Shown: positions 5,104 through 50,538 of the stretch, one piece after another
How the letters are laid out: each line of letters begins with the position of its first letter
Position numbering within the stretch: the stretch's first letter is position 1
Program-made: the position numbers and the translations under genes
Source of the DNA: Candidatus Micrarchaeota archaeon
Lineage (GTDB): Archaea; Micrarchaeota; Micrarchaeia; Micrarchaeales; Micrarchaeaceae
Length of the DNA: 64,000 nt
Direction of reading: 5' to 3'
Assembly: GCA_028866905.1 (NCBI GenBank)
Contig: JAGWHI010000002.1
Coordinates: 7,219 to 71,218, forward strand
The notes under the pieces: generated by a model
What the model was told of the DNA's origin: nothing
What the model saw: the letters and a program-made list of their open reading frames with translations, nothing else
Database searches by the model: none

Positions 5104-5160
5104 TAAAGACGACGCTCATCTATTTAAGGCTATCGCAGTCTCCGAGCGAGAGAAGCCATA

Positions 5161-27944: not shown

Positions 27945-28832
27945 TCAGAGCGGCAGTATGTAGAGCAGCACGTTGCCGAAGAGCAGCGATGCCACCGCCC
28001 CTATGAATATCGGGAGCGCGAGCGGCATCGCCTGCTTGTAGACCGGCAGCTTGGCGCGCACGTTCTTGCTTCTCATCTCGCTTATCAGCTCGGGAGTGAC
28101 CAGCCTGTCGAATATCCTGACCTTCCGCTTTATCTGGTCTATAGCCTTCTGCTCCATAAGGTTGAAGGCTATTATGTCGCCCTCGTCGAACTTGTCTACG
28201 TTGACGTAGTCGACCATCACCCTTGTTATCGGCTTCTCGAAGAGCACCGTGGTGACCGACCCTATTAGCATCAGCGCCAGCAGCACCACGGCATACGGGT
28301 TGGCGCCGACGAAGGTCATTAGGAACGCCATCAGCGCGAGGTATGCCGTAGTTATTAGCAGCGCCTTGAAGGCGGTGGGAGCGCCTATCGACTTCATCAT
28401 TGCGCGCCTTGACTGCATTGCTGCCTTCGGGAGGTAATATATCGGGAGTATCACGAGCGCGGCTATGCCGGTCCCTATCAGGACCGACACCACGAACGGC
28501 ATGCCGAACTGGCTGAACGTACCGCCAAGGATGGGCTGTATCTGTATCGGGAGCATCAGCGAAAGCGCCCCTAGCTCTATTATGTCGCCCTCGCCTATCT
28601 GGCCTATCTTGTACACGACGTACCCCAACGACAGCACTACCACGGCTATGAGCAGGCTTACGGCTATCTGCATCACGTCGAGGTATGCCACGGTGAGGAG
28701 AAGTCCGTACGCCAACGTGGCGTAAGCGAACAACGATGGCACGTTCCTCTTGTTGAAGATGTCGAAGAGCATGTAGATTAGCGCCACGACGACTACGCTC
28801 GCTATCCTGATCGTGAACAGGTCCATCTGCAT
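27945..28832 (-). CDS. archaeal class III signal peptidase (PibD/FlaK/EppA-type A24 prepilin peptidase)
   Basis: Polytopic protein with the first catalytic Asp in MLFDIFNKRNVP and the second in IGEGDIIELGAL (GxGD-like). Confidence 0.7.
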   Translation of the reverse strand: MQMDLFTIRIASVVVVALIYMLFDIFNKRNVPSLFAYATLAYGLLLTVAYLDVMQIAVSLLIAVVVLSLGYVVYKIGQIGEGDIIELGALSLMLPIQIQPILGGTFSQFGMPFVVSVLIGTGIAALVILPIYYLPKAAMQSRRAMMKSIGAPTAFKALLITTAYLALMAFLMTFVGANPYAVVLLALMLIGSVTTVLFEKPITRVMVDYVNVDKFDEGDIIAFNLMEQKAIDQIKRKVRIFDRLVTPELISEMRSKNVRAKLPVYKQAMPLALPIFIGAVASLLFGNVLLYILPL

Positions 28833-28860
28833 CAGTTACTGATTCTGAACGTTCGGGTTA

Positions 28861-30342: not shown

Positions 30343-30345
30343 TGG

Positions 30346-31815: not shown

Positions 31816-31872
31816 TGGTAATGGGTTATCGCTTCAAGGAATTTAAGGCTATCGCTCTACCGCATAAGATTG

Positions 31873-31922
31873 GAAGGAAAAGAAAGGTAAAGAAAAAGAA
31901 AAAGGAAAGACGCTATGCGTCT
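31873..31922 (-). terminator. hairpin AGACGC-tat-GCGTCT overlapping the stop codon, followed on the minus strand by a long pyrimidine/T-rich tract
   Basis: The minus strand reads GACGCATAGCGTC then TTTCCTTTTTCTTTTTCTTTACCTTTCTTTTCCTTCC. Oligo-T tracts are the usual archaeal termination signal. Confidence 0.45.
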
Positions 31923-32304: not shown

Positions 32305-32504
32305 GATATTAAGAAGGGCAGGTAGCTTTTAAAAGGAGATATCCACCTTTGGCTACTGTCGGAGTCGCGGTTGTTTTTGTCGTCGGAGGGCACAGCCGGC
32401 CGGCTTAAATAAGCATATAATTTATTTTATAATGCGCGGGTTTCTCCTCGCCAAAAACGCATTTAGCGGAAGGGAGAGGGCAACGAAAGAGATATTAACC
32501 CTCT

Positions 32505-33218: not shown

Positions 33219-35621
33219 TCAGCCTATTCCCTTGCCGGCGTCGTCCGCGTCGATGAGCTTCAGCGAGCCTGACGAGAGGTTGAGCTTCAGCTCCTCGGCT
33301 ACCTTGCTGTGCCTCCTGTAAAGGGACTCGCGGAACTCGTCCATCTCCTCTGCGTTGAGGAACGCGAGGTAGGTGGTTGCGTCCTGATAGACCGGCATGC
33401 GCTTGAACTTGCTGGTCTTCGAGTGTATGACTATGTATGCGCGCTCGCCGTGGAAGGTAGCCACTATGTCTGCAAGGCTGCTCGAGTCCAGCTCTGTGAA
33501 GACGTACGCGTGTGTAACGAAATAGACCCTGAGCTTCTTGAATGTCGCGAGGTACGCGGCGTCGTGACCGCTCTGCTGCTCCCACGACTTCGGCGCGTAC
33601 AGCCCGTCAACCATGAGCAGATGGCCCGCGCCGGCCATCTGGTCCAGCATCATCTCGACGTTGTTCAGTGTCAGGCTGACCGGCATGCTGTTGTACCTTA
33701 TGTTGTTGGCTATAGCAACGCGGACCTCGTCGCTGGTCAGGGGCATGTACTTCCAGTGGAAGTATAGGTTCTGCTTGTCGAAGACGCCGAGGACGGTGTC
33801 GAGCTTCATCTTTATCGGTATGCTCTTCTGCTCCGGCAGGTTCGGCACGTCTATGTAGAACTCGTCGCGGGTCGGGCTCTTGACAAGGGTGACCAGCATT
33901 ATCACCACCGCAAGCACTATCGCTATCTCTATGTACTCCTTGTCTATGTGTATCACTGTGGGCGGGTTCGAGGCTATGTACCTGTAGTCGTTGGACAGCA
34001 TCAGGATCTCGAAGGTCGCGTTGCCGTACACTACCGGCGCGCCCTTCGGCAGCGTGTAGTTTATCGTGCCGTTGTAGAAAGTGCCCGACTGCCCGTAGAG
34101 GCCGTTGAGCTTTATGGTGTAGTTTATCCCGTTGAGCTGCTGGCCCGCAGAGCTGATTCCGAACAGGAAGCTGCCGGACGAGTAGTTGGCGTACTTTAGG
34201 TAGACGCTGACGTTCGGCACCGTGAAGGTCGAGGCGGCGAACTCGGAGTTGTTGAACGCCTGGAGCTTGACTATGTACCTGCCCTGGCCGAGGGCGAACT
34301 GGACGTTCTTGAAGAAAGTGAAGTTGCCGGACGCGTTGAAGTTCGAGACGTATATCGACTGCTTCGGGCTCATGTTCTGGTCGTATACAGTCAGGTGCGG
34401 CGCCACCTCGACGAGCCCCTTAGACCCGGTGAACACCTCCATGGACAGCTGCGCCGGCACGTTTGGCGTTACGTTGGACTGCATGGCCATCGTGCCGTTC
34501 GGCGCTGCGGCTGGCGTGTACCGGATGTCCTTGTAGTCGTAGTACAGCGTCCTGCCCACCTGGCTCTTTGTCGAGACTACTATGCGGCCGTAGTAGCCGT
34601 TAAGCGCAAGCTCGTTGGAATAGTTGTACGCCAGTGGTATGCCGTCCATTATCACGCCGTATGGCGCGCCCCCGCTCGCGTAGCCCTTGGTCTGCACGGT
34701 AGAGGATCCGCTCGCCGCCCTTGGCAGCCAGACAAGCCCGGAAACCGCCCTGGCTATGTCAGCGCCGGCCTCTGCCGGGGACTTCCAGCTCCCAAGGTAG
34801 TTGGAGAACGAGGCGATGTAGCCGTTGCCAGCCTTTATGTACGCTATCGGGCCGTATGTGCTGCCGTTGACGAACTGGAACGTGGCCTGGTTGTTGTAGT
34901 ACACAGGGCTCTGGTTATAGAGCAGGGGCACCGTAGCCAGGTATCCCGGTATGCCGCCCGCCGGTATCACTATCGAGCCAGGAAGCAGCACCCTGGAGAA
35001 GTTCTGGCCTACGTAGAATACGCTTGTGGACTTGGAGAGGAGGTATGCGAGCATCGTCTGGTTGCCGTGGTATCCGCTGAGCTCCGTGGAGTTTACGGGA
35101 TTGAGCATGTACCTCGGCAGCACGCCGTTGAGCACTATGAGCACCGAGTCGTTCGTTATCCTGGTGAGATTGCCCGGGTCCACAGTGACAACGTCGTACG
35201 TTGAGTTCACGAAGCCGTAGGCGTTGAGGTACGTCGTAAGGTTCGACACCACCTCGTTTATCTGGCCGCACGAGTAGCACTGGTTGCCGTAATAGAGCAG
35301 GTATACCTTGCCGGGCGGCCGCACCTTGAAGATGGTGCCGTTGAAGCCTATGCTGCTCGCGTTCTTGTAGGTGTAGTCCACCAGAGCGTACGGCGCCATG
35401 TCCGCGCCGTTGTTGTACGAGAGCAGGTCCTGGCCAGCCATTATCGCGCCTATCGATGGCGGCCCTCCTGCCTGCGGGGTCTGGTTCTGGGCCTGCGCGC
35501 CGATAACGGATATCTCGTGCGCCACGTAGGCGAACAGCCCGACGCAGACTATGACGACCGCAGCGATTATCGCTATGAAGAGCTCCTGCCTGCCGCTCAG
35601 CCTGAACCTGCCGACCTTCAT
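33219..35621 (-). CDS. 800-aa bitopic envelope protein: N-terminal anchor, sequon-rich ectodomain of about 550 aa, second TM, cytoplasmic domain of about 190 aa
   Basis: Helices ELFIAIIAAVVIVCVGLFAYV and IEIAIVLAVVIMLVTLV. Many N-x-S/T sequons in the ectodomain. It is the last gene of the minus-strand operon, and its ATG overlaps the stop of a 54-aa ORF. Confidence 0.7.
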   Translation of the reverse strand: MKVGRFRLSGRQELFIAIIAAVVIVCVGLFAYVAHEISVIGAQAQNQTPQAGGPPSIGAIMAGQDLLSYNNGADMAPYALVDYTYKNASSIGFNGTIFKVRPPGKVYLLYYGNQCYSCGQINEVVSNLTTYLNAYGFVNSTYDVVTVDPGNLTRITNDSVLIVLNGVLPRYMLNPVNSTELSGYHGNQTMLAYLLSKSTSVFYVGQNFSRVLLPGSIVIPAGGIPGYLATVPLLYNQSPVYYNNQATFQFVNGSTYGPIAYIKAGNGYIASFSNYLGSWKSPAEAGADIARAVSGLVWLPRAASGSSTVQTKGYASGGAPYGVIMDGIPLAYNYSNELALNGYYGRIVVSTKSQVGRTLYYDYKDIRYTPAAAPNGTMAMQSNVTPNVPAQLSMEVFTGSKGLVEVAPHLTVYDQNMSPKQSIYVSNFNASGNFTFFKNVQFALGQGRYIVKLQAFNNSEFAASTFTVPNVSVYLKYANYSSGSFLFGISSAGQQLNGINYTIKLNGLYGQSGTFYNGTINYTLPKGAPVVYGNATFEILMLSNDYRYIASNPPTVIHIDKEYIEIAIVLAVVIMLVTLVKSPTRDEFYIDVPNLPEQKSIPIKMKLDTVLGVFDKQNLYFHWKYMPLTSDEVRVAIANNIRYNSMPVSLTLNNVEMMLDQMAGAGHLLMVDGLYAPKSWEQQSGHDAAYLATFKKLRVYFVTHAYVFTELDSSSLADIVATFHGERAYIVIHSKTSKFKRMPVYQDATTYLAFLNAEEMDEFRESLYRRHSKVAEELKLNLSSGSLKLIDADDAGKGIG

Positions 35622-35782
35622 GCCGCTCCACCACCAACCTGCGGCTCCGAGGGCCCTGATGGCTTGGTGAGCAGCTTCACGAACAGCCTTGTTAGCAGGT
35701 TCTCCCTCTGGCCTACCCTCTTCGTTATCGCGTAGACCTTCACGTACTTGATCCTCTTGTTGATCCTCGCGGTGTAGCGCAT
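35618..35782 (-). CDS. unlisted 54-aa basic ORF translationally coupled (ATGA) to the 800-aa gene
   Basis: Manual translation gives MRYTARINKRIKYVKVYAITKRVGQRENLLTRLFVKLLTKPSGPSEPQVGGGAA. It fills the otherwise empty gap between 35621 and 35790. Confidence 0.35.
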   Translation of the reverse strand: MRYTARINKRIKYVKVYAITKRVGQRENLLTRLFVKLLTKPSGPSEPQVGGGAA

Positions 35783-35789
35783 GCGAACA

Positions 35790-36518
35790 CTAGCTCTTGA
35801 GCTCGATGTAGCCGAGCGCGGTCATCTTGTTGAGCATCTGCTCCACCCTTGGGGCGTTGAGCTTGTACGCCTTGGCGAACTCTATCACGTCTATCGAGCT
35901 GTCGTGCGACTCCAGCCATTCCTGTATCATCACCATCAGCGACTCGTCGGAGTAGGTCTCGAGCTCCTTCAGGCGCTCGTTCAGCTCCTTGTTCTCGGTG
36001 TTCAGCTGCTCCGCCTGCACCGAGAGGTTCTTGTTCGATGCGGAGAGCTCCAGGTTCATGCGCTTTATCTCGCGGTACTCGTTGAACAGCGAGTCGTAGT
36101 TGTTGAACAGCGTGCTGTAGCTCTGTGATATCGAGCCGAGCAGGTCGTCGATTACGGAATCCGCGGTCTGGAATATGTTCGTGTCGTCAACCTTGTAGAG
36201 GTCGCTGAGCAGCGATAGGATCCCGAACAGGTTCTTCAGCACGAACAGGCGGCGCATCCTCACGCTCGTGTCCGGGCCTATCGAATACTTCACTGTCACG
36301 CCGTCCTTTGCGAACTCGTATATGAAGAAGAGGAAGGGCCTGTTCTGTATGTCGTGGCTCTCTATCCTTGCCACGACTGTACGGTCCGGCTCAGCCTTCA
36401 CCCTGAACATCTGAAGGTCGGAGAGCCTCGTGGCTATCTCGTCAAAAGGTGCTAGCGCAGAGCCGCCGATCTTTATCTCCTCAACCTTCGGCTCTATCTG
36501 CGGTACCTCCTCTGCCAC
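35790..36518 (-). CDS. cytoplasmic coiled-coil protein with C-terminal winged-helix-like domain
   Basis: Heptad region NEYREIKRMNLELSASNKNLSVQAEQLNTENKELNERLKELE. The C-terminus IDVIEFAKAYKLNAPRVEQMLNKMTALGYIELK is wHTH-like. A TATA-like GGTATATATTAG lies about 40 nt upstream. Confidence 0.55.
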   Translation of the reverse strand: MAEEVPQIEPKVEEIKIGGSALAPFDEIATRLSDLQMFRVKAEPDRTVVARIESHDIQNRPFLFFIYEFAKDGVTVKYSIGPDTSVRMRRLFVLKNLFGILSLLSDLYKVDDTNIFQTADSVIDDLLGSISQSYSTLFNNYDSLFNEYREIKRMNLELSASNKNLSVQAEQLNTENKELNERLKELETYSDESLMVMIQEWLESHDSSIDVIEFAKAYKLNAPRVEQMLNKMTALGYIELKS

Positions 36519-36589
36519 TACACCTCACCGATGAAATCAGATGTATTCCAACTAATATATACCTTTCTGATAGCAATCTCTCGATTTCG

Positions 36590-36970
36590 TCAGCGTTTCT
36601 GGCCCTCGGGCTGCGCAGCCGCGCGCGGCGTCTCCACGGCCGGCATGTACCTGCCGGCGAGCAGGAGGGCGTACAGGAAAAGCGTTAGCGCTATGCCGAA
36701 CGGTATGGTCACGACGTTCAGGCCGGACGCGAAGAATAGCACAGCGGTGAATATGACGCCGAGGGCTATGTAGGCCATCTGCCTCCGCTCGAAGACCGCA
36801 CGGCTCTTGTGGTACTCCTTGTAGCAGTCCTTGCACACCACCAGCCTGTAGCCCCTCTCGTTCCTGGTAACGTTCCTCTTGAACCAGCGTATCGCGCCTA
36901 TCACGAAGTCCTCCTTCACAGGAAGGCCGTTGCGCTTCTCCCCGCATATTATGCATCGATTCTCATTCAT
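36590..36970 (-). CDS. zinc-ribbon protein with two C-terminal TM helices
   Basis: CIICGEKRNG...VCKDCYKEY (CxxC...CxxC), followed by two hydrophobic helices. Confidence 0.55.
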   Translation of the reverse strand: MNENRCIICGEKRNGLPVKEDFVIGAIRWFKRNVTRNERGYRLVVCKDCYKEYHKSRAVFERRQMAYIALGVIFTAVLFFASGLNVVTIPFGIALTLFLYALLLAGRYMPAVETPRAAAQPEGQKR

Positions 36971-36974
36971 AGCA

Positions 36975-37292
36975 TCACTCCATCTCCACAGTGGCCTTGT
37001 AAAGCCTGCCGGTCTCGGCGACTATGCGCTGCTCGTCCAGCATGTTGATCACGCTCGCGATGGTGACGTCGTCCATGCCGAGCCTCCTGAAGACGTTGGA
37101 GAGCTTGTCCCTCCTCAGCCCGCCCTTCTCCAGCATGGCGGCGAAGCTTATCACGTTCATGTGCCTGTGCACCTTCTCCATGTTCCCGAGCACTGCGCTT
37201 ATGCTCTTCTCGCTCACGCCGAACGCGGTGAGCAGGCGGCGCAGCTCTATCCTGCTTATCGTATAGGTACCAAGGTTAGACAGTCTCGACAC
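36975..37292 (-). CDS. small cytoplasmic helical protein (105 aa)
   Basis: Overlaps the 3' end of the ATPase gene by 17 nt. It contains short G-[VLM]-x3-4-[IL]-x2-V-x3-L units (GVSEKSISAVLGNM, GLRRDKLSNVFRRLG, MDDVTIASVINML) that also occur in the ATPase C-terminal tail. Confidence 0.5.
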   Translation of the reverse strand: MSRLSNLGTYTISRIELRRLLTAFGVSEKSISAVLGNMEKVHRHMNVISFAAMLEKGGLRRDKLSNVFRRLGMDDVTIASVINMLDEQRIVAETGRLYKATVEME

Positions 37293-38793
37293 CCGTTGAG
37301 GATATTATCCTGGTTATCAGCTGGTCCTCTATGCTCAGGCCCTTCAGGAAGCCGACTATGTTGTTCACCTGCACGCCGTTCGCCTTTATCAGCTGTATGA
37401 AGTCCAGCATCTTTATGCTCCTGTTCCTGCCGTCGAGCTCCGCGAACACCTGGTTGATGGAATCGGCGCCGACGTTGTACTCTATCAGCCGGTTCTTCAG
37501 CTCGTCCTTCTCGAACTGGTAGTCGCGCTGGATTATGTTCGCGGACAGCTCGCTCTGGGTGAGCACGTCCGACAGCTCTATCGTGTACACGTAGAGCGGC
37601 TCCTCTCCGTGGATCTTCTCAAGGAGGAAGGTCTCCGGGAACCTCAGCGCGGTCTGGAACGCCATCTCCACAGCGGCTTGGCCCACGCCGAACTTGCCTA
37701 TCTCCATCCTTATGAAGTTAGAGAAGTTGAGCGATCCCTGCAGGTAGTTCAGGAACTTCTCGAACTTTATCCTGAGCATGAACGTGGTGCCCACGTTGGA
37801 GAATATCGCCTCGTTTATGTCCGTCGGGTTCTGGGATGCGACTATAAGGCCGAAGTTGTACTTCCTGCCCTCTCGCACGATCATTATAGCGTCGCTCTTC
37901 TCGTCGCTCGCGACCTTCCACGCCTCGTCCAGTACTACCATCACCTTCAGCCCTTTCGTCTCGCTCCACCCCTCGCTCCTCATCCGCTCCTTGAGCGTCT
38001 GGAGTATGACAAGCGCCGCGAGCCCCCTGAACCTCTCGTCAGGCAGGCCTGACAGGTCGACATCCACGAGCCCCGACTCCGTCAGCTTTGCCAGGTCCAG
38101 GGTGCTCCTCCTTGCGAAGTAGTCCTCCCCCTCCCGCGCGAACTGCCTGAGCCTGTATATGGTGTTCTCGAGCTCTGCCGGGTACTCGTATGTCCCCTCC
38201 TGCAGCTTCTCCTCAAGCAGGGATATCACGTCGGCCAGTGTGGGCGCCTGCTTCTCCGTAGGATAGCGCTCTGCGAGCTCGAAGCCGGAGTTGACGTACG
38301 ACTGCTCCATCGCCTCCTCTGTCAGGCGCCTCTGCTCTGGGTATAGCGCTATGTCAGTCAGTATGTCGAACGAGTTCATTATCTGCTTGACGCGGTCGAG
38401 CGGCTTCATGCCAGACAGGTCCATTATGTTGATGTAGTCGCCCTTCGCGAGCGATACTATGGTGCCGCCGCTCTGCTTCACCCAGGCCTTGTACTCCCCG
38501 GCCCAGTCTATTATCACGGCGTTGGTGCCCCAGACGTAGCTCGCCCTTATTATCAGCGACTTCACGAAGAAGCTCTTGCCGGAACCCGTTATACCGACAA
38601 CGGCTATGTGGGGGTTGGTCAGGTTCAGGAAGGACCATGTGAACGGAACGTGGAATATCTTGGTGGTGCCGACGTAGAGCGACTGGAACGGGTCCGACAG
38701 CAGCACCTCGGCCGGGGGCTCAGGAGGCCTTGATATGAACGACCTCCTGGCTATCTCGTCGCTCATTATGTGCTGGAACCTTACTAGCGTCAT
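37276..38793 (-). CDS. VirB4/TrbE/TraC-like (HerA-FtsK superfamily) P-loop ATPase lacking the VirB4 N-domain
   Basis: Walker A AVVGITGSGKSFFVKS at about aa 75, then AVIIDWAGEY, Walker B VMVVLDEAWKVAS and REGRKYNFGLIVASQNPTDI. The DEAW and RK-x-N...(A/T)SQ blocks are VirB4-like rather than FlaI/PilB-like. Confidence 0.75.
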   Translation of the reverse strand: MTLVRFQHIMSDEIARRSFISRPPEPPAEVLLSDPFQSLYVGTTKIFHVPFTWSFLNLTNPHIAVVGITGSGKSFFVKSLIIRASYVWGTNAVIIDWAGEYKAWVKQSGGTIVSLAKGDYINIMDLSGMKPLDRVKQIMNSFDILTDIALYPEQRRLTEEAMEQSYVNSGFELAERYPTEKQAPTLADVISLLEEKLQEGTYEYPAELENTIYRLRQFAREGEDYFARRSTLDLAKLTESGLVDVDLSGLPDERFRGLAALVILQTLKERMRSEGWSETKGLKVMVVLDEAWKVASDEKSDAIMIVREGRKYNFGLIVASQNPTDINEAIFSNVGTTFMLRIKFEKFLNYLQGSLNFSNFIRMEIGKFGVGQAAVEMAFQTALRFPETFLLEKIHGEEPLYVYTIELSDVLTQSELSANIIQRDYQFEKDELKNRLIEYNVGADSINQVFAELDGRNRSIKMLDFIQLIKANGVQVNNIVGFLKGLSIEDQLITRIISSTGVETV

Positions 38794-38823
38794 CCCATCC
38801 CCATATCATATTTCGCGCTCATC

Positions 38824-38835
38824 ATTTAATAAATG
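38824..38835 (-). promoter_or_regulatory. TATA-like ATTTATTAAA about 35 nt upstream of the ATPase start (possible internal promoter)
   Basis: AT-rich element in the 42-nt gap between genes. Recognised by position and composition only. Confidence 0.25.
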
Positions 38836-39651
38836 CTACGACTGTATGTCGAAGTTGGTTGCGGCCTCCTCGTACGTCGTGGGGAGCGAGAAGTTGAACT
38901 GGAAGAGCGTGTAGAGCTCCCTGCCGACTATGCGCGCGAGCTGCACGTCCATGCCCGACATCGCCACCTCGAGCTGCTTTATCTGCGCGCTCAGCAGGTC
39001 TAGCGCCGCCTTCTCGCTCACGCCGACAGCGGTTGTCTCGAAGTACATTATCGTGGCTATCGGCTTCTCGCCCTCGCCTATGCGCGCTATCTTCGTCTGG
39101 AGCACGTTTATCTTCCTCTGTATCTCTGTGACCGTCATCTCGTTCACGTTCTGCGCCTGCATCGCCCTGGACAGCTGGAACTCCTGGAAGGAGCGCTTGC
39201 CCTCCAGCTCGTCGCGCACCTTCTGGACGTCGAGGCCTGCGGACAGCACATGATACTTGAACGGGAAGCCGATGTTCATCACGGCGCGTTCCCACGTCTC
39301 GGGGGCCTGCACAGCCTTGAGCTCCTGGTCCTGCTGCTGTTGCTCCGCCTTGAACGTGTACGCGAACACGTTGGCCGTTACGTATCCGGTCGCGTAGAAC
39401 AGCCCGTTGACGTTCTTCACTACAGCGTCCTGGGTCTTGACTATCCTGTAGTCCTTCGCCGGCTGGAAGCTCACCCCCAGCAGGTTGGTGACGAGCGGGA
39501 ATATCACGAAGTCCGCCCAGTTCATCACGAGAAGGACGCCGAGCGCCACCAGTATGAAGACCGCGCCGATGAGGCTGTATGCGCCGCCGCCCATCGATCC
39601 CAGCGACGACAGCGCCACCACTATCACGAGCCCGCAGAACGCCAGATACAC
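38836..39651 (-). CDS. 2-TM protein with cytoplasmic domain of about 200 aa; paralogue of 39669..40502
   Basis: Start trimmed to the GTG after a GAGGGA purine patch, since the longer ORF overlaps the upstream gene. Two N-terminal helices are followed by KTQDAVVKNVNGLFYATGYVTANVF... and a coiled-coil-like C-terminus. Confidence 0.5.
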   Translation of the reverse strand: MYLAFCGLVIVVALSSLGSMGGGAYSLIGAVFILVALGVLLVMNWADFVIFPLVTNLLGVSFQPAKDYRIVKTQDAVVKNVNGLFYATGYVTANVFAYTFKAEQQQQDQELKAVQAPETWERAVMNIGFPFKYHVLSAGLDVQKVRDELEGKRSFQEFQLSRAMQAQNVNEMTVTEIQRKINVLQTKIARIGEGEKPIATIMYFETTAVGVSEKAALDLLSAQIKQLEVAMSGMDVQLARIVGRELYTLFQFNFSLPTTYEEAATNFDIQS

Positions 39652-39668
39652 TATTCCCTCTTCGTCCG

Positions 39669-40502
39669 TTATATCACCTCCTCCTGGACGTTCTTGCTTA
39701 TCTGCTCGCTTATAGTCGAGAACGGAATCAGGTATTCCGGCTCTATGTAGTTGAGCAGCTCCTTGCCCGTTACTATGCTCGGCGTAACGCCGAAGGTCGA
39801 GCCTATGCCCGAAAGCAGCTCCCTGGCGTCCTGCTGCGCTATGCTCACGGCCTCGTACTCCTTGGCGCCCCGCGCAGACACTGTGGCGTAGTGCGTCAGC
39901 TCGAACGACTGGACTCCGCCTATGTGGTCGAGTATGTTGTGCCACATCGCCAGCTTGCCGCGCACCCTCTCTATGTCGCCCGGCGACCCGTTGTTCTGCA
40001 CGAGCTGGACCTCCTCGTTCTCGACCTTGCTTATCGTGTCGCGCAGCTGCTGGATGTAGTAGTCCTTGTTCATCATGTGGAGCTCAGCGGTGTACCTGGC
40101 CGGCGACTTGCTTATGCCCACAAGCCTGCTCACACGCCTGGAGAAGTCGAGCTTCTCATCGTCGCTCATCTCTGTCGCGGACCTGTATACGGGTATGCGT
40201 ATGTAGACCGTAGCTATGTAGTCCTCGCCGTCCTTCCTGATCACAGAGTCTGATGCGGTGGACAGCCAGTATGCGTCCTCGTTGCTAAGCACTATGTTGC
40301 TGCTCCTCTGCTGCATGAACGGCAGCAGCAGGTAGGTGTAGTATCTTGATGAGAACGCCAGGATGTCAAGCGCCATCGAAACTAGCAGCAGAAGCAGCTT
40401 TGCCGGTGCCGGTAATATGGTCAGAGGCGCTGATCCGGCTATTATCAGGACGACGACAGAGGATATGAAAAATCCCAGGAAGACGAATATCTTCTTGTCC
40501 AT
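39669..40502 (-). CDS. 2-TM protein with cytoplasmic domain of about 200 aa (VirB3 plus VirB4-N-domain-like, tentative)
   Basis: Two N-terminal helices, then SDSVIRKDGEDYIATVYIRIPVYRSATEMSDDEKLDFSRRVSRLV....YTAELHMM. This has the same order of elements as the start of the VirB4/TrbE N-domain. A TATA-like GGTATAAATAGG lies about 38 nt upstream. Confidence 0.55.
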   Translation of the reverse strand: MDKKIFVFLGFFISSVVVLIIAGSAPLTILPAPAKLLLLLVSMALDILAFSSRYYTYLLLPFMQQRSSNIVLSNEDAYWLSTASDSVIRKDGEDYIATVYIRIPVYRSATEMSDDEKLDFSRRVSRLVGISKSPARYTAELHMMNKDYYIQQLRDTISKVENEEVQLVQNNGSPGDIERVRGKLAMWHNILDHIGGVQSFELTHYATVSARGAKEYEAVSIAQQDARELLSGIGSTFGVTPSIVTGKELLNYIEPEYLIPFSTISEQISKNVQEEVI

Positions 40503-40580
40503 TACAACCAGCGCCGATTACGCTTCAGATTTAACCTATTTATACCTAACCTTGGGCATGCCTGTCCATCGATGTCGGCG

Positions 40581-41465
40581 CTACGGGACAGTATATCCGC
40601 TGGTCCACGTGCTGATGAATATCACGTTCTGCGTCAGGCCGCTGTAGATGTTGCCGCTGTAGTCCTGGGGGCCCCCGTTCAACTGCCACCAGCCCACAGT
40701 GGCCTGCGCGTTTATCGGCGCTCCGCCTATGCCCTCGAAGTAGAGCGCGCTGACGTCGTTGGACGAGAGTGCGGTGTTGTAGAGCTGTATGTTGGAGACA
40801 TATCCCTTGAAGTAGCTACCAGATGGGACGTATCCGGCCCCTATCGAAGCCGATCCGGAGAACGTCACGCTCGGCCGGACGTTGAGCGTCTCGGAGTAGG
40901 ACGCCCCGTCGACATATACTGTCGCTGTTGTTCCGCTCCCCGGGTACGTGAAACCTATGAAGTGCCACTTGCCGTCGTTAACGACGTTCGCAGATGACGT
41001 GGTTGTGCCGCATACCTCTGCAGTCGGATGCCCGCTATAGATCCCAAGGGCCCATATCGTTCCGGCGGTGCAGGCGCTGGAACTGCCGGGATTATTGCCG
41101 TAAGAGAACACCCACGGATAGTTCGTGCTTTGCGTGGTCTGCACCCATGCGAATACGCTTATAGCGTTGTCGCCCATGGGGAAGGAGTTCTGTGGTATGC
41201 TGGTTATGTTGCTCGTCTTCACGCCAGTAAAAGACGCTACGAACTGCGGCTCCTCGTTGTTGCAAAGGCCGCTGGTCTGGGCGAACTGGCTGGTGCCCGG
41301 CCCTTCCGGCCTGACTATGCTGCATGCGCCCCCCTGCGTCTTAGGCGCGCTGCCGTTGAACACGCCTATGCTGTACAGCGCAGTAAGGGCGACCGCGATT
41401 ATTATTATGGCCCAGCCATAGGTCATCAGGTATTCCATTGCGGATTGGGCCCTTAACATGCGCAT
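40581..41465 (-). CDS. class III signal peptide (prepilin-like) protein with LamG/concanavalin-A-like domain
   Basis: MRMLRAQSAMEYLMTYGWAIIIIAVALTALY is a textbook archaeal prepilin N-terminus. AISVFAWVQT...DGKWHFIGFTY...VYVDG...GYVSNIQLYNTALS is the LamG jelly-roll pattern. Confidence 0.75.
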   Translation of the reverse strand: MRMLRAQSAMEYLMTYGWAIIIIAVALTALYSIGVFNGSAPKTQGGACSIVRPEGPGTSQFAQTSGLCNNEEPQFVASFTGVKTSNITSIPQNSFPMGDNAISVFAWVQTTQSTNYPWVFSYGNNPGSSSACTAGTIWALGIYSGHPTAEVCGTTTSSANVVNDGKWHFIGFTYPGSGTTATVYVDGASYSETLNVRPSVTFSGSASIGAGYVPSGSYFKGYVSNIQLYNTALSSNDVSALYFEGIGGAPINAQATVGWWQLNGGPQDYSGNIYSGLTQNVIFISTWTSGYTVP

Positions 41466-41499
41466 CCCTTATCTAACATCTGGCAAGCATTAAATAGTT

Positions 41500-42633
41500 T
41501 CATATGAACGACCTGATCCTGCCGCCCATCTGGCTCGCGCCCCCTATGACGTTGGCCAGCTGGGTTATGAAGGCGTACGAGACGGTCGTTATCAGAGCAG
41601 GCCAGAACAGTATGAGAAGCCAGAAAGCGCTGAGGGAGTGCTGGGCGGAAGCGAGCGTGGTCACAAGCGGCGAGGTTGGGCTCAACGCGTTTACCTCTGC
41701 CCCTGTGCCTGCGCCGTACTTGTTGAGGGAAGCCGAGTACGCGGCCAGGTTGCTCTGCATGCTCGGCAGGGTGAAGTAGTATGCAATCGCGAAAAGCGAT
41801 GGCGTCACTAGGTAGAAGGCTATCGCTATAGCTACCATCATTCCGCCGAGCGCCCTGGTCGGGAAGAACGCCCGGAGCACTATGCCGGGCACTAGGAAGA
41901 CGGGTATCGCCGAGATGGCGAAGAACACTATGAGATAGTACTGCGCGTGGAGCGCCAGGATGCCGTCAGTCATGAGCCCGGCCAGTGTCACCGCAGGGTC
42001 TATGAAAAGCACTTGGAGTAGCAGCTTGAGCCTTCCGACGCTTGTGGCCCCTCCCTCCTCGCCCACTATTGGGAGCACCTGCCCATTGACATACAGGCTC
42101 TTCACCTCAAGGTTGTTGTAGAATTGGTCTGTTATGTAGACGTTGGTGAGCGAAGTGTACATCGTCTCAGTCCCGTTGATTGTGGATTGCAGCTGGTGGA
42201 GTATGTAGGGATATGGGCTGACGGGCCCGACAAAGACAGCAGGCAGTATGCCGAACAGCACTGCCGACAGGTAGAGGAAGAGCAGAACTATTATTCCGCT
42301 CGCCGTTGCCTCGTATATCTCGCCTATGCCGAAGTTTCGTATCCTGTCGCTCTTGAGTGCCGTGCCGATCATGAAGATTGCCGCTGCGACCAGGAAAGCG
42401 AGCATCACAGCGGTGAACGCGAGCGGAAGGTCACCGCACCATGTCTGCGCTATTTGCGAATTTATCGGCAGGTACCATGGCTCGTTCTGCGATATCTGCT
42501 GCTGGACCGACTGCGGGAGCTGGCTGCAGGACTGCTGCTGCGCTTGGCTCTGCTGAGCTGCGCCAGCCGATGCGGAAAGCGTCGCGATTATCGCAAGCGA
42601 TAGCAGCAAAAATGTTTTCTTGGACAACATCAT
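41500..42633 (-). CDS. polytopic membrane protein, paralogue family member 1 (VirB6/TrbL/CedA-like role proposed)
   Basis: Start trimmed to MMLSKKTF (ATGA overlap with the upstream stop). Signal/anchor helix, Gln-rich segment, motif GIVLRAFFPTRALGGMMVAIAIAFYLVTP. Confidence 0.65.
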   Translation of the reverse strand: MMLSKKTFLLLSLAIIATLSASAGAAQQSQAQQQSCSQLPQSVQQQISQNEPWYLPINSQIAQTWCGDLPLAFTAVMLAFLVAAAIFMIGTALKSDRIRNFGIGEIYEATASGIIVLLFLYLSAVLFGILPAVFVGPVSPYPYILHQLQSTINGTETMYTSLTNVYITDQFYNNLEVKSLYVNGQVLPIVGEEGGATSVGRLKLLLQVLFIDPAVTLAGLMTDGILALHAQYYLIVFFAISAIPVFLVPGIVLRAFFPTRALGGMMVAIAIAFYLVTPSLFAIAYYFTLPSMQSNLAAYSASLNKYGAGTGAEVNALSPTSPLVTTLASAQHSLSAFWLLILFWPALITTVSYAFITQLANVIGGASQMGGRIRSFI

Positions 42634-43817
42634 ATCACGCTTGTCAGGAGGGACATAAAGTCTATGCGTTCGCCGAAGGCCCTGGAGAAGTCCACTATGA
42701 ACGCATCCAGTATTATGAAGTTTATGAAGGGTATGAAGGTGAAGCCTGCGGCTATGAACAGCAGGGATGTCAGCAGGTTGGGATCCACGAAGTTTATGAG
42801 CGAGCACTGCGCGGCCGACTGCGTGATGGGCGCGACCACTTCAGACTGCAAAAGGCAGCCGGCCGTATTCAACAGTATGGTGAATCCAGCTTGCGTGCCG
42901 AACTGGACTATCGATAGCGCGTTCTGGGGGATCAGCGTAATTGTGGTTATGTTGGAATCTATGAAGCCATACGTTATGCTGACCAGTAGCGGGTAGATTA
43001 TCCCAAGGCCCAGGCCGAGCGCGATAAGAGTTCCGCCGAAAGACCTGGTCAGGCCGAAGGTCCTCGCCAGCAGGCCGAGGATTATGAAAAGCGCGAATAG
43101 GAACACGCTTGACGAGAGTATGAGCAATTGCACCTGGCTCAGCATTGTCAGGGTTATTATCGCCGAGTAGGATATGGAGGTCACCTGCTCCATGGACTGC
43201 GGATACAGGCTCGCGAGCCCGAAGCTGACGTTGAGTATAGAGTCGCCAGGTGGCGGGCCGAAGCCTGCAAGTGGCGACTTGGAGCCAACCTGGCTCGCGG
43301 TTGATGGTGCGGACTTGCCCACCGGCAGGTAGACGTTGAACCATATGCCAGGGGTAAGTCCAGTAACTATGGATGTGATGTACACCAGCGCAAACGACGT
43401 GTATGCGCCGCTGTTGAAGTTGCTTAGGTCGCACACCGCCAGGGTGTTGAGGCTACCTGCGGACGCGCATTGTGGCGGGATGAGCCCGACCTTCGAGAAG
43501 CCAGGCTGCGGGCTTAGCATCGTTATGTATGCTACGGAGCCGAACGCTACGAGCAGCAGCACGGACAGCAGCCCCTCGTATATCTGCGTACGCGACCAGT
43601 TCCTGGCGGCGCCGCTACCCGTTATGCCCGAGAGCATGTACACTATGGACGCTATAGCTATGACCAGGAGGACTATCGCGGTGGCCAGCGGTATCCAAGA
43701 GGTTGTGTCTATCGACGGCGTCTGCACAGGGCCCGCAGCGTAAATGACCGGCATAAGCAGCGACACCATTACGAACGCGGCCGGCAATGCCTTTGCGAGT
43801 TTAGACTGCAGCATCAT
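42630..43817 (-). CDS. polytopic membrane protein, paralogue family member 2
   Basis: Motif GLLARTFGLTRSFGGTLIALGLGLGIIYP. ATGA overlaps at both ends. Confidence 0.65.
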   Translation of the reverse strand: MMLQSKLAKALPAAFVMVSLLMPVIYAAGPVQTPSIDTTSWIPLATAIVLLVIAIASIVYMLSGITGSGAARNWSRTQIYEGLLSVLLLVAFGSVAYITMLSPQPGFSKVGLIPPQCASAGSLNTLAVCDLSNFNSGAYTSFALVYITSIVTGLTPGIWFNVYLPVGKSAPSTASQVGSKSPLAGFGPPPGDSILNVSFGLASLYPQSMEQVTSISYSAIITLTMLSQVQLLILSSSVFLFALFIILGLLARTFGLTRSFGGTLIALGLGLGIIYPLLVSITYGFIDSNITTITLIPQNALSIVQFGTQAGFTILLNTAGCLLQSEVVAPITQSAAQCSLINFVDPNLLTSLLFIAAGFTFIPFINFIILDAFIVDFSRAFGERIDFMSLLTSVI

Positions 43818-45013
43818 ATCACGTTCCTCAGCACATGTTTGGACTGCATGCTTGGCGCGCCGAGCAGCTGGCTCAGGTATTGGACGAAGTCAAGCGCGGT
43901 CAACAGCGAGAGCACCACCGCTATTATGGCGTATACCGACGGGACTATCACGTTCAGTACGAATGAGCACACGGTGTACTGGTAACCCTTGAAAAGATCT
44001 ACCATGGTCGGCAGATAGCTGGACGGGCTTGCGAATGTTATGCTGCTGCCTATGCTCTGCAGGGTGACCTGCTGCGGTGGAACGGGCGCAGCCGAGCCGA
44101 AGCATATGGTTGGCACGGCTGTTGAGAGCCCTGTTATGTCGGGCAGTGTCAGCATATAATACAGAAGCAACGGGAAGACTATATAGAAGCTGGCGAAGAG
44201 CGCTATGAACGCGCCGCCTGCGGCCCTGGTGAACGGCGTAGACCTTAAGACCACCCCGGCGAACAGGAAGAACGGGAAGACGTAGTAGAATACTGCAGGC
44301 AGCATGGATAGCGCGAGCATTGCCGCGAGAATCCCCCAGCTCACGTTGATCATTGTCGACAGCACCTGCGCTATAGCCGAAAGGCCGCTGAGCGGGGCGA
44401 CTATGAACCCGACACCGCCAGGCTTAAACGTTATGTATATTGAGCTTAGTATGTTGAGCGAGTTCTGCTCTGTAATCAGGGATATTATGCTTGAGAAAGG
44501 GTTGAGGGCGACCCCGGACAGTATATTGCAGTCTGATTGGAATACCGTAACGTTGAGCGAGGAGCCGCCGAGCGCGAACAGGCCAGATGGACCAGATATG
44601 ATATTTATTGCTGAAAATGTGCCAAGGAATACGTACACTACCGCTGCCGTTATCACTATCTCCCCCATCTCGACCTTTGCGAATCGCGTCAGCTTGTCTA
44701 TATGGAATGCGCTCCCTATGGCCCAGGCCAGCGCCATTATGCCGAGCATTACCCCGATCAGCGCAGTGGCAAGCGCTATAAGGCTGTTGAGCGCGAAAAG
44801 GTTCGACACGTCGGCGAAGCCCCTGTTGGAGGTGAAGAGCGCGTTGCATAGGGATGCCGAGCCGCCAGTCTGGCTCTGCGATTGCGTTGTGGCAGAGAAG
44901 ACTGTTGGGGAGGTCTGTGAGTACGAGCTTTGCGGCAGGGCGACCACCGCAAGCGCAGCTATCGCGATGACCGCAGCCGCGAAGCCAATGATCCCGTTTG
45001 CCACATCATTCAC
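43814..45013 (-). CDS. polytopic membrane protein, paralogue family member 3
   Basis: Motif GVVLRSTPFTRAAGGAFIALFASFYIVFP. Abuts its neighbours with a 0-4 nt gap or overlap. Confidence 0.65.
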   Translation of the reverse strand: MNDVANGIIGFAAAVIAIAALAVVALPQSSYSQTSPTVFSATTQSQSQTGGSASLCNALFTSNRGFADVSNLFALNSLIALATALIGVMLGIMALAWAIGSAFHIDKLTRFAKVEMGEIVITAAVVYVFLGTFSAINIISGPSGLFALGGSSLNVTVFQSDCNILSGVALNPFSSIISLITEQNSLNILSSIYITFKPGGVGFIVAPLSGLSAIAQVLSTMINVSWGILAAMLALSMLPAVFYYVFPFFLFAGVVLRSTPFTRAAGGAFIALFASFYIVFPLLLYYMLTLPDITGLSTAVPTICFGSAAPVPPQQVTLQSIGSSITFASPSSYLPTMVDLFKGYQYTVCSFVLNVIVPSVYAIIAVVLSLLTALDFVQYLSQLLGAPSMQSKHVLRNVI

Positions 45014-46552
45014 CTATATAAGGCGCGATAGCCCTGCCAGGGAGGTGTCGCCACCCAGCAGCCCGGAGAGGCCCAGTATCGCAGCTATCACTATCAGTAT
45101 ATTTATTATCGGCAGGAAATACGTCGATACGCCTATCATGCCATAGGCGCTCATGAATCCGTAGAACATGCCCAGCATGCCGTCGGCCGGACAGTTGTAA
45201 GGCAGCGGGAAATTTGGCGCACCCTTCTGGAACCCGAGCGCACCCACGTTCAACGATATGAAGGATATCACGTCGGGAGCCGGCACCATGGTCCACAGTA
45301 TGTCCTCCGACTCTGCCTCAACGAGGTTGCCGTCGCTTATTGTCTGCGGAAGCAATTTGTTCCCGAAGGCTGGGCCGCCAGGCCAGCAGGCGTAGTACTT
45401 CCCTATCGCCTTCATGCTCGGCTGCACGAAAAAGTTCGGCACGTATGCCGAGATGGACCTATTGGGGAAGACCGCAGTGTTGTTTGCTGCCGGGATGGCG
45501 AGCGTTGAGTTGGTGCTGGCGTTAAGCAGGCCTCCGAATCCGTACACTGATGCCGTGCTATTAGGCGAACTCGAGAACGCCGCAGCTGAACCATGGCCGA
45601 GCGCGAGATACTCTATCCCGAACACCGTGGGGTAAAATATCACCATGCCTATCGCTACAGCTATCAGGAGCCCTCCTATCTTCCGCGTCAGGAACACCGC
45701 CCTCAGCAGCAGGCCGCCGAAGATGAGGTACGGCCAGATGTATATGGACGACACTATTATGAGGAGCTGCGCCACGCTGGCCTGGAACGACAGGTCCATG
45801 AGGTAGGATATCACCTTCATCGAACTGTATATCATGTCGTAGCCGTAATAGGGCCTGAAGTCGAACTTGAGGTAGAACAAAGACTGCCCTGCATTCACGG
45901 TGGGGAAACAGCTCACCACGTTGGACCCTGGCACGCAGATTTGTATCGCCGGCCTCAGCCTTGACAGGAATCCCACGAACGAGTCCTCGACCATATAGCT
46001 GTTTAGGTTTGCCACTGACTGGTTTGTCAGGTTGGCGACCACGACACCAGTGGCGGCGAGCGGATACTCTATCTCTGCGGTGAGGCTGCTCTGCGGATAC
46101 CCGACTATGCCACACAGGCCAGGGAACGGCTGCTGCGGCGTCTGGGTCGTGCTGGGCGGCGCTGCGGCGTTTAGTACAGAATCCGCTTTGCCGAGCAGCT
46201 GCAGGTAGGTGGTATTGCTTATCTGGCTGCACAGTGACATTATTGACGACTGCGACAGCAGGCTGCCCTTGTTAAGCGACCCTTGCGCCTGGAATATCGA
46301 TGCGTACGACACAAGCGCGCCGATTATAATCATAGTAAGTATCACAGTTCCTATCAGCTGGTAGAACTCGTTCAGCGCGCCCTGCTTCGCCCCCTGGTTC
46401 CGCAGCAGCGTAGCAGCGAAGTACCATACTGCCACTATCATGGCGTCGAGCAGGAGAGCCGCTATAATCAGGGGCATTATGTCGGTCTGCACTGGCGAGA
46501 CCACAGGCAGCGCGGAGGAGGTGGCCGCCAGTAATATCTGCGATGGTGTCAT
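45014..46552 (-). CDS. polytopic membrane protein, paralogue family member 4 (longer external loop)
   Basis: Motif GLLLRAVFLTRKIGGLLIAVAIGMVIFYP. It has an extra C-terminal loop and helices. Confidence 0.65.
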   Translation of the reverse strand: MTPSQILLAATSSALPVVSPVQTDIMPLIIAALLLDAMIVAVWYFAATLLRNQGAKQGALNEFYQLIGTVILTMIIIGALVSYASIFQAQGSLNKGSLLSQSSIMSLCSQISNTTYLQLLGKADSVLNAAAPPSTTQTPQQPFPGLCGIVGYPQSSLTAEIEYPLAATGVVVANLTNQSVANLNSYMVEDSFVGFLSRLRPAIQICVPGSNVVSCFPTVNAGQSLFYLKFDFRPYYGYDMIYSSMKVISYLMDLSFQASVAQLLIIVSSIYIWPYLIFGGLLLRAVFLTRKIGGLLIAVAIGMVIFYPTVFGIEYLALGHGSAAAFSSSPNSTASVYGFGGLLNASTNSTLAIPAANNTAVFPNRSISAYVPNFFVQPSMKAIGKYYACWPGGPAFGNKLLPQTISDGNLVEAESEDILWTMVPAPDVISFISLNVGALGFQKGAPNFPLPYNCPADGMLGMFYGFMSAYGMIGVSTYFLPIINILIVIAAILGLSGLLGGDTSLAGLSRLI

Positions 46553-46561
46553 ACGTATAAC

Positions 46562-47764
46562 CTATATTCCGCTCCACAGCGGGGTTGCTCCTTCTATGCC
46601 GGCATTGAGCGCTTTCGAGAGATTTACTGCGAACGCTATCGTTATTCCGAGGTTCAACGCGAACAGCACGATCGCCTGAAATATGAATGTCGCCATTTTA
46701 GCGGTAAGGTCGTCTAGCCCGACCCACGGAGTAAGGAAGTTGCTGATGAAGTAGTTTCCCGTGAGGATGTTGCCAAGGAATCCAATGGCGTACGGGCTTA
46801 TGCTGAATCCCGGTATCGTAACTGTTGTCGCGCTGGTGGATGACACCGCCTGCTGGAAGAAGGTTGGCGGCAGATTCGATATCGAGAAGTTGAATGTGTG
46901 CAGGTACTGGTACGACGGGTTGGAGCTGCTGAACATCCATGTCATTATGTACGCGTCCATCGAGATGGTCAGCGGATAGACTATGTAGAACGCCACGGCT
47001 ATTGCTATCATTGAGTTGGCCGCGCTCCTCAATCCGCCGCCTGCGCCAGCGAACGCTATGGACCTCAGCGCAATGGCTATCGGAAGTATGATTACGAATG
47101 CGGTATATTGGGCCAGCGGTACTAATATGTATTGCAGCAACATGGCCCCAGTTGTCACTATCAGTATGGGGGAGAAGATGTCCAGATACAGCTTGCTCAG
47201 TATCGCGAAGGTGACGCCTATGTTGGTGCCTATGTACGGGGTAACGTAGACCGCGGTTCCTGCCGGCGCGCCGGACTTCAGCTTGAAAAGCGGCGTCCCT
47301 ACGTTGAACTTATTGAGGTACCCGCCAAGGGCGATGTTGAGCAACGCCTGCGCGCTGGCGTAGTAGAGCTGGCCCGTCAGCGCTGAGCTCATCGCATCCG
47401 TGTAGACCTGCGAGAGCATGCCCATTCCCGTGTTGAACGTGAGGTTGCCTATATAGTAGTCAGCGAACTGGAACGGTGACATCTGCTGGCCAGTGATCCC
47501 CTGGCTCAACGACGACGATACGCCGCACACTGTCGAGGCCGTAAGCGCGAGCACCATGATGATGACGCCGCTTATGACCATCTGGATTATCTCTCCGCGC
47601 ACCATTGAGGTAAACCTGGTCCTGATGTTTGTCGGAAGGTACCTGCTGAACATGTAGACTGCAGCGATGGTGAGCAGCCCGACCAGTATAACTGTGAAGT
47701 TGACCCCGAGCCAGCCGCTTGCGTAGGTTGAGCCACCGTACAGTGCACATGTGTCTACAGCCAT
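46562..47764 (-). CDS. polytopic membrane protein, paralogue family member 5 (divergent motif)
   Basis: Motif variant IAIALRSIAFAGAGGGLRSAANSMIAIAVAFYIVYP. Confidence 0.6.
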   Translation of the reverse strand: MAVDTCALYGGSTYASGWLGVNFTVILVGLLTIAAVYMFSRYLPTNIRTRFTSMVRGEIIQMVISGVIIMVLALTASTVCGVSSSLSQGITGQQMSPFQFADYYIGNLTFNTGMGMLSQVYTDAMSSALTGQLYYASAQALLNIALGGYLNKFNVGTPLFKLKSGAPAGTAVYVTPYIGTNIGVTFAILSKLYLDIFSPILIVTTGAMLLQYILVPLAQYTAFVIILPIAIALRSIAFAGAGGGLRSAANSMIAIAVAFYIVYPLTISMDAYIMTWMFSSSNPSYQYLHTFNFSISNLPPTFFQQAVSSTSATTVTIPGFSISPYAIGFLGNILTGNYFISNFLTPWVGLDDLTAKMATFIFQAIVLFALNLGITIAFAVNLSKALNAGIEGATPLWSGI

Positions 47765-47768
47765 TGTT

Positions 47769-50504: not shown

Positions 50505-50538
50505 GCTAGAGTTTCCAAGACAAGGTATTTATCCCTGA

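Follow-up and report, generated by a model that had tools for sequence, protein, structure and literature searches.

A LamG-headed protein with a class III signal, encoded inside a VirB4/HerA-like gene cluster, as a probable member of a dispersed pilin-like family of Micrarchaeota

The gene found at 40581..41465 (minus strand) of the window, meaning the whole stretch of 64,000 nucleotides that was analysed, encodes a LamG-headed, pilin-like protein of 294 aa with a class III signal. We put at about 75% the probability that this gene is a stand-alone member of a large and dispersed family of Micrarchaeota, made of LamG-headed pilin-like proteins and variable in copy number, that its product is a lectin-type adhesin, and that it has its own promoter and is served in trans. 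The window is from contig C18 of a genome of 886 kb in 31 contigs, which is ~90% complete.

Architecture and promoter of the LamG gene

The protein starts MRMLRAQSAMEYLMTYGWAIIIIAVAL, and the original prediction had described it as a canonical archaeal class III signal peptide followed by a globular part with a LamG/ConA-like pattern. Both descriptions held. The four strings on which the LamG assignment relied (FAWVQT, DGKWHFIGFTY, VYVDG and YNTALS) were all present in the ORF translation, and the Pfam profile Laminin_G_3 (PF13385) matched residues 89-239 with an E-value of 5.5e-16 and 59.5 bits, for a cut-off of 27.6. The AlphaFold2 model of the 294-aa protein, built with 68 homologues, had a pLDDT of 87.8 and a pTM of 0.83, and consisted of a beta sandwich preceded by a helix (residues 9-32). 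When this model was compared with the PDB by Foldseek, 312 matches were obtained at E<=0.001, the top ones being LamG/pentraxin domains (PAPP-A, perlecan LG3 and neurexin LNS) at E ~1e-8, and the fold was a jelly roll of two sheets. PF04021 gave no match to the protein in the Pfam profile search.

To define the N-terminus, we used a regular expression of the FlaFind type. A short charged leader, MRMLRA (residues 1-6, 41448..41465, minus strand), was followed by a hydrophobic stretch at the extreme N-terminus, QSAMEYLMTYGWAIIIIAVAL, and the pattern [KRDE][GA][ALIFQMVED][ILMVTAS]x3 was fitted at RA-QSAM, with a predicted cut after Ala6 and before Gln7 and a Glu at +5. In the alignment of the 68 homologues, which are 40-51% identical overall, position -2 was K or R in 55, position -1 was A, S, L or G, and position +1 was Q in 61. 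The predicted cut precedes a near-invariant hydrophobic helix, QSAMEYLMTYGWAIIIIAVALTALYSIGVF (residues 7-36, 41358..41447, minus strand), whose column conservation reaches 92% and in which E11, L13, T15, Y16, G17, W18, A19 and I20 are invariant. Since these residues are conserved at 92% despite an overall identity of only 40-51%, the class III N-terminus goes far beyond a chance resemblance. The same helix motif also heads pilin-like genes devoid of LamG on contigs C8, C19 and C24.

The helix is followed by a conserved neck (residues 37-88, 41202..41357, minus strand) containing Cys48 and Cys68, both invariant among the 68 homologues, which probably form a disulfide. Then comes the LamG/ConA-like jelly-roll head (residues 89-239, 40749..41201, minus strand), the variable part of the family according to the alignment, and the protein ends with a conserved segment (residues 240-294, 40584..40748, minus strand) bearing the motifs EGIGGAPI, VGWWQLNG and DYSGN. 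In this last segment, G245, G247, G248, P250, W259, L262, D268, Y269 and S270 are invariant, and it was modelled with a pLDDT of 86-93. Measured along the alignment, column conservation was 74% for the neck (residues 37-75), 26-47% for the LamG core (residues 76-225) and 75-81% for the C-terminus (residues 226-294). Such a constant scaffold with a variable LamG head would suit a diversifying binding head carried on a fixed presentation module, and the head may bind host or surface glycans as an adhesin of the lectin type.

The gene was also predicted to possess its own TATA-like element, and one was indeed found: TATTTAAT, at 41489..41496 (minus strand), lies directly after the stop codon of the upstream gene memA, at -31..-24 from the ATG of the LamG gene. 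This is within the zone, -37..-27, in which TATA-like hexamers are enriched genome-wide (707 long ORFs), and such a pile-up is consistent with leaderless or short-leader transcripts. Downstream, another box, TATAAATA (40537..40544, minus strand), is located at -42..-35 before g39669 and marks the start of the ATPase operon. The arrangement of these putative promoter elements suggests that the LamG gene is a transcription unit of its own, and that its transcription would be driven by the TATA box of the gene itself, giving an mRNA with a short leader or none.

The GC content of the gene (58.3%) and its GC3 (75.6%) are like those of its neighbours, and a recent foreign acquisition of the gene is thus without compositional sign. 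We also considered that the gene could be a decaying or non-functional stray copy devoid of any role, as could be thought of a lineage-specific gene having no positional orthologue. We scarcely credit this idea, since the reading frame is intact, all family-invariant residues are kept (the N-terminal block, C48, C68 and the C-terminal motif), the TATA-like element is well placed and the codon composition is native.

The family and the genes for processing and assembly

More than 2070 homologues of the LamG protein were found, and the named sources were Micrarchaeota/Marsarchaeota, including Ca. Mancarchaeum acidiphilum. In a search of 5.8 billion proteins, the best match was only 48-50% identical, and the best homologues found in all searches were 48-54% identical. 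LamG-prepilin genes were present in at least one copy in 99 of the 100 other genomes of the order (100/101 overall), dispersed and in numbers ranging from 0 to 29 per genome (one count gave 0 to at least 24 and another up to 29), with for instance 18 LamG-family matches in genome G015. In a maximum-likelihood tree, the LamG protein belonged to a clade of 14 supported at 98%, together with dispersed copies; the comparison set of this tree consisted of the best matches to the LamG protein, which makes the placement of more distant, cluster-adjacent copies weak. For three members of the clade (P0006, P0008 and P0012), the contexts were read, and the genes were located among ribosomal, replication and topoisomerase genes. 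An invariant pilin helix, a variable lectin head, a conserved C-terminus and 0-29 copies per genome fit a fast-turnover adhesin repertoire.

We then looked for the enzyme that could process these proteins. The original prediction had named the gene at 27945..28832 (minus strand) as encoding the PibD/FlaK-type peptidase. The whole genome contains no A24-like (prepilin peptidase) candidate other than this 295-aa polytopic protein, and the assignment is plausible; the Pfam match itself, to Peptidase_A24 (PF01478), stayed below threshold, with 18.7-21.7 bits for a cut-off of 26.5. No PDB sequence and no NCBIfam family matched the candidate. Both aspartate motifs are kept, Asp24 in LFDIFNKRNVP (LFD[IVL]FNKRNVP) and Asp82 in G-x-[AG]-D being invariant in 12 orthologues, and the A24-like candidate is single-copy in 97 of the 101 genomes. 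From these features, it is likely that this protein is the processing enzyme for the LamG protein, and the class III signal would be cut after Ala6 by this single A24-type peptidase.

To localize the assembly machinery, the contigs were searched with profiles. Neither T2SSE nor T2SSF was matched on the window's contig C18, in agreement with the earlier statement that FlaI/PilB and FlaJ/PilC are absent from the window. Elsewhere, three PilB/FlaI-type T2SSE ATPases were detected, on contigs C4, C14 and C19, and PilC/FlaJ (T2SSF) on C4. On C4, the ATPase and a two-gene PilC/FlaJ are flanked by three giant pilin-like proteins with seven LamG domains in all (Pfam); on C14, the second ATPase is accompanied by small class III pilin genes; on C19, four pilin-like genes flank the third ATPase (452 aa); all are of the QSA[MIV]E[YM]L type, and one of them has an identical QSAMEYLMTYGWAIL helix. 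In total, class III-type genes number at least 15 and are spread over C4, C8, C14, C18, C19 and C24. These data favour the second option of the original prediction, in which a pilin-like adhesin depends on an assembly ATPase whose gene is located elsewhere, and the LamG protein would be assembled in trans by the PilB/FlaI-PilC machinery of other contigs. Among these systems, that of C19 is the most likely assembler, since the pilin-like genes flanking its ATPase share the QSAMEYLMTYGWAIL N-terminus with the LamG protein.

It had also been envisaged, as a refutation, that the LamG pilin would be conserved with a conventional type IV pilus locus rather than with the VirB4-type operon. Type IV pilus genes do exist elsewhere in the genome; the close homologues of the LamG protein, however, are conserved with neither locus and are scattered among housekeeping genes. 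A linkage to the pilus loci was only partly true. In five near-complete genomes out of five, and also in the present genome, multi-LamG giants flank a T4P ATPase of ~511 aa, and these giants alone are consistently linked. Some single-LamG copies adjoin the ~450-aa T4P ATPase in two of the five near-complete genomes (G011 and G020), and 7 of the 45 copies of these five genomes were at <=20 kb from a T2SSE ATPase, versus ~6 expected. Since single-LamG copies are not linked statistically to T4P ATPases, the ATPase was chosen from the N-terminus that it has in common with the neighbours of this ATPase and from a few cases of adjacency.

Cleaved after Ala6, the mature protein would have 288 aa, which is large for a filament subunit, and it could be merely membrane-anchored. 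The LamG protein would then be a surface-anchored lectin located outside any pilus, and the class III signal would serve only for export, cleavage and anchoring or for a pseudopilus-like presentation. The size of the mature protein and its bulky head speak for this, as do the tens of paralogues per genome in relatives, a number that seems to exceed the needs of a tip complex. Moreover, PibD processes substrate-binding proteins as well as pilins (PMC4858521), and the PibD-processed class III sugar-binding proteins of Sulfolobus, those of the bindosome, offer a precedent. On the other hand, the 30-residue helix is near-invariant, including Glu+5, and common to the pilin-like genes beside a T4P ATPase, indicating a constraint beyond anchoring, for instance filament-core packing, and bacteria offer proven cases of modular lectin pilins located at the pilus tip. 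We hold a purely anchored lectin to be unlikely. In the preferred reading, that of a stand-alone pilin-like adhesin, the near-invariant helix would let the protein be built into a type IV pilus-like filament, where it would form a bulky subunit, either minor or at the tip, or would at least retain it at the surface.

The cluster neighbourhood of the LamG gene

As the original prediction stated, the LamG gene sits inside a cluster with a VirB4-like ATPase and membrane paralogues, between memA on one side and g39669, g38836 and the ATPase on the other. The upstream neighbour, memA (41500..42633, minus strand), closes the tandem series of polytopic membrane paralogues; its start is probably the ATG at ~42633, and tblastn alignments to relatives start at residues ~57-94 of the long ORF. 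The downstream neighbour, g39669 (39669..40502, minus strand), encodes a 277-aa protein with two TM segments and is the first gene of the ATPase sub-operon. The VirB4/HerA-like (DUF87) ATPase of the conserved cluster (37276..38793, minus strand; PF01935, E 2.8e-17) is given here as context only and not as a partner of the LamG protein. Its NCBIfam matches to VirB4-like, CedB, CedD and TraC families were all far below the cut-offs. It was matched once in each of the 101 genomes of the order, with a full-length, single-copy orthologue that is 62-80% identical in 99 of them and weak matches only in G088 and G089; this ATPase is therefore a core gene and not part of a mobile element. Also in the window, a 143-aa ORF (54897-55328), a VirB2-like candidate, begins with a signal-like N-terminus and carries two hydrophobic helices in its C-terminal part; searches of it against Pfam and NCBIfam gave nothing significant.

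To determine whether the LamG gene is conserved with the cluster, up to 20 kb around the DUF87 ATPase were taken from 98 relatives, and the cluster proteins were mapped on them by tblastn. The gene order was near-invariant in the ~98 relatives: g50539 - g47769 - g46562 - g45014 - memC - memB - memA - g39669 - g38836 - ATPase - g36975 - (g36552) - g35790 - g33219. The junction between memA and g39669 was readable in 73 relatives, and a LamG gene was present there in none of the 73. In 59 of them, the junction consisted of a spacer only, of 36-292 bp, A/T-rich and with TATA-like boxes (the median length over all 73 junctions was 98 bp). In 13 others, it held an insert of 1.3-3.2 kb with a different gene, and in the remaining one it was rearranged. 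At the tblastn threshold used (E 1e-5), extremely divergent LamG genes may escape in the larger inserts, the ORFs of which differ in N-terminus and architecture. The co-occurrence of the LamG-prepilin with the VirB4-like cluster is thus not conserved. Among the compared genomes, the genus of the present genome is represented by this one species.

LamG genes were found in or near the cluster in a few relatives, at other positions. In G032 and G026, which belong to one genus, a LamG gene is inside the cluster, between g36552 and g35790. In G020 and G090, it is just upstream of the ATPase; the upstream cluster genes were not seen there, and the G090 contig ends 1.5 kb further. In G068, two LamG copies are located 3 to 5 kb beyond the surveyed stretch that ends in g33219. 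On the tree, these cluster-adjacent copies have at least four independent origins. Considering at least ~980 LamG matches in ~85 Mb, at least ~14 would be expected in the 1.24 Mb of cluster, a figure based on rounded genome sizes and on relatives that are non-independent samples, and LamG genes were inside in two genomes. No enrichment of LamG in the 1.24 Mb of cluster over the genome-wide density was detected.

A LamG gene absent from all 73 junctions, not enriched over the background density and with at least four origins beside the cluster is not a cluster component. From these comparisons, we read its placement as the result of an insertion specific to this lineage, at an operon boundary that bears a promoter, and not as a functional link. 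A loose functional association of LamG genes with the cluster may still exist, since LamG genes are found beside it in four other lineages (G020, G090, G068 and G026/G032).

A stronger link can be imagined, in which the LamG protein would be this lineage's functional accessory of the VirB4/HerA-like machine, co-regulated with it or docked on it, and holding the host at the transfer site. The location of the gene inside the cluster agrees with this, as do the paralogues in or beside the cluster in G026/G032, G020, G090 and G068 and the peptidase gene at 8.4 kb from the cluster ATPase. Nevertheless, none of the 73 relatives with a readable junction has a LamG gene there, the positions elsewhere are different, there is no enrichment, and the cluster-adjacent copies are polyphyletic. 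Moreover, the LamG gene has its own TATA box, and the operon boundary in which it lies holds an unrelated insert in 13 other genomes. As for the peptidase, its gene and the DUF87 cluster are separated by tens to hundreds of kb in relatives (for example 130 kb in G025, 436 kb in G063 and 167 kb in G015), so its closeness to the cluster in the present genome is a lineage-specific local accident. Altogether, such an accessory role appears very improbable to us.

This accessory role is the hybrid machine that the original prediction offered as its first option, and it is not supported, given the 73 junctions devoid of LamG, the lack of enrichment, and the other adjacent copies, which are independent insertions elsewhere. 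That a LamG pilin-like protein was recruited as the host-grasping element of a VirB4/VirB6-like cell-to-cell apparatus, giving a hybrid between a type IV pilin system and a type IV secretion system, is if anything a little less credible than an accessory role. If it were true, the sporadic LamG genes beside the cluster in G020, G026/G032, G068 and G090 would be repeated independent recruitments. Because neither a class III pilin nor a prepilin peptidase belongs to the conserved cluster, models of the VirB4/HerA-like machine should omit both. The memA/g39669 junction is an insertion-tolerant operon boundary and helps to define the transcription units of the cluster.

Comparison with known systems

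The closest comparison is with Ca. Mancarchaeum acidiphilum Mia14. In the paper of Golyshina et al. 2017 (PMC5498576), LamG-like jelly-roll proteins are described as expanded in Mia14 and other DPANN, a role in host interaction is proposed for them, and some of the LamG copies are linked to type IV pilus loci. The same paper reports a single FlaK-like peptidase in Mia14 and assigns one of its T4P systems to the Epd/clade 1 group of archaeal T4P, and no description of a pilin-type N-terminus of the LamG proteins was found in the passages searched. No mention of LamG or pili was found in the Micrarchaeota cryo-tomography paper (10.1101/2024.05.20.594898) or in the Micrarchaeota evolution paper (PMC12892359), nor of LamG or DPANN in Makarova 2016. 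The expansion of LamG is thus already published (Golyshina 2017), and what is particular to the present gene is its position only, which the evidence says is incidental. Taken alone, the LamG gene matters little: it is another copy of a family known as expanded in Micrarchaeota and proposed for host-cell attachment. The LamG proteins of Mia14 are of the same family as the one studied here, P0041 of Mancarchaeum being 42% identical to it over 99% of its length. The present copy differs from those of Mia14 by its placement in the cluster between memA and g39669, which is unique among the sampled genomes.

In Epd pilins, the cleavage site is followed by a Gln at +1 and a Glu at +5 (DUF361/QxSxExxxL motif). 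These EppA-dependent type IV pilins of Methanococcus maripaludis are part of clade 1 of the archaeal T4P (Szabo 2007; Ng 2011; both cited in PMC4858521), and stand-alone pilin genes outside the main ATPase/TadC locus are usual in archaea (PMC4858521). The LamG protein resembles Epd pilins by its Gln at +1, its Glu at +5 and a stand-alone gene outside the main locus. Its motif, however, is QSAMEYL and not the QxSxExxxL of Epd, and Epd pilins are without a LamG head.

An archaeal protein that does carry a LamG domain is TafC (NF052521; PMC11821415), the tip protein of the haloarchaeal Tat-fimbriae and a presumed adhesin. The NF052521 profile matched the LamG protein with an E-value of 1.2e-7 and 31.2 bits, versus a cut-off of 410, and the LamG part alone was aligned; with such a score, the LamG protein is not a member of the TafC family. 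TafC differs by its Tat signal and donor-strand assembly and has no class III signal, and no twin-arginine motif is present in the N-terminus of the LamG protein.

The VirB4/CedB-type systems Ced and Ted use VirB2-like pilins and are not known to use class III pilins. The likeness to these conjugation-like systems (PMC9905601) is in the neighbourhood only, that is, a DUF87 ATPase and polytopic membrane paralogues, and the LamG gene is not conserved with the VirB4/CedB-like cluster.

In its design, the LamG protein resembles PilC of Streptococcus sanguinis, a modular type IV minor pilin that binds glycans through a ConA-like module and has been placed at the pilus tip by modelling (PMC9934059). 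In both cases, a class III signal and a pilin helix are followed by a lectin module of the ConA/LamG superfamily. This likeness concerns the design only and homology is not claimed, and PilC was absent among the top Foldseek matches listed for the LamG protein. PilC is bacterial, is encoded by the pil locus, needs PilA and also comprises a globular pilin moiety and an Ig-like module, whereas in the LamG protein a short neck with a putative Cys bridge separates the helix from the head.

Insertions at the memA|g39669 junction

We looked at the site that the LamG gene (40581-41465, reverse strand) occupies in the window, that is, the junction between memA and g39669, in the relatives in which an insert is present. 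In 11 of the 13 insert-bearing relatives (L058, L114, L119, L120, L123, L124, L127, L128, L130, L132, and L135, all regions from family f3 genomes), this site encodes a protein of 370-810 aa whose N-terminus is conserved and contains LSLGAINALIPILIILILLVAAAGLNRGYSLFNFFG. The own genome carries, at the end of the pilus locus on contig C4 (C4:41043-42422), an ORF whose N-terminus shows weak similarity to that of the junction proteins. The alignments reach E values down to 8e-10 and are limited to the first ~55-75 residues. The memA|g39669 junction behaves like an operon boundary that tolerates insertions. Inside the cluster of the relative G026, a LamG gene (L120 2424-3307) was detected as two separate tblastn pieces covering residues 2-81 and 166-294. 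The ORF recovered there is without a signal peptide, so this gene is possibly a disrupted copy.

LamG proteins and other class III-type genes

The LamG protein of the window ends with a conserved C-terminal motif, VGWW(P/Q)LNG...DYSGN...G (window 40584-40748, residues 240-294), which resembles strands commonly found ahead of a Laminin_G_3 domain. Therefore, the LamG head may be circularly permuted, or the protein may finish with the opening strands of a second LamG repeat that has been lost. The window encodes a second class III-type protein, of 155 aa (3471-3938, reverse strand), in which NKRS is followed by the predicted cleavage site and then by QSSLELLITLSFGLIILLPIVVLAF, and which gave a weak match to DUF4249 (E 1e-4). 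Directly after its gene comes a 394-aa ORF (3935-5119, reverse strand), for which a Pfam search returned no match. Neither of these two genes is linked to the VirB4-like cluster.

In another genome of the order, G015, at least 11 single-LamG prepilin genes form a tandem array (C1:581304-604463). Four copies are spaced by exactly 1974 bp and have near-identical scores, which points to a recent tandem amplification. The array probably corresponds to what Golyshina 2017 (PMC5498576) describes as a 'laminin G locus on a genomic island'.

Limits and conservation of the DUF87/VirB4-like cluster

In the own genome (window 27945-38793), the A24-like peptidase and two tandem paralogues of ~490 aa (28861-31815) lie just downstream of the cluster. 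In relatives, the peptidase and the DUF87 ATPase are separated by tens to hundreds of kb, and the arrangement of the window is therefore ruled out as a conserved extension of the cluster operon. The cluster itself consists of 14 genes (33219-51273, with the ATPase at 37276-38793). The DUF87/VirB4-like ATPase and its cluster belong to the core gene set of this taxonomic order (101/101 genomes sampled), with orthologues 62-80% identical in 99 of them, and the gene order is nearly fixed. Such core status, together with a near-fixed order, is unusual among conjugation-type genes.
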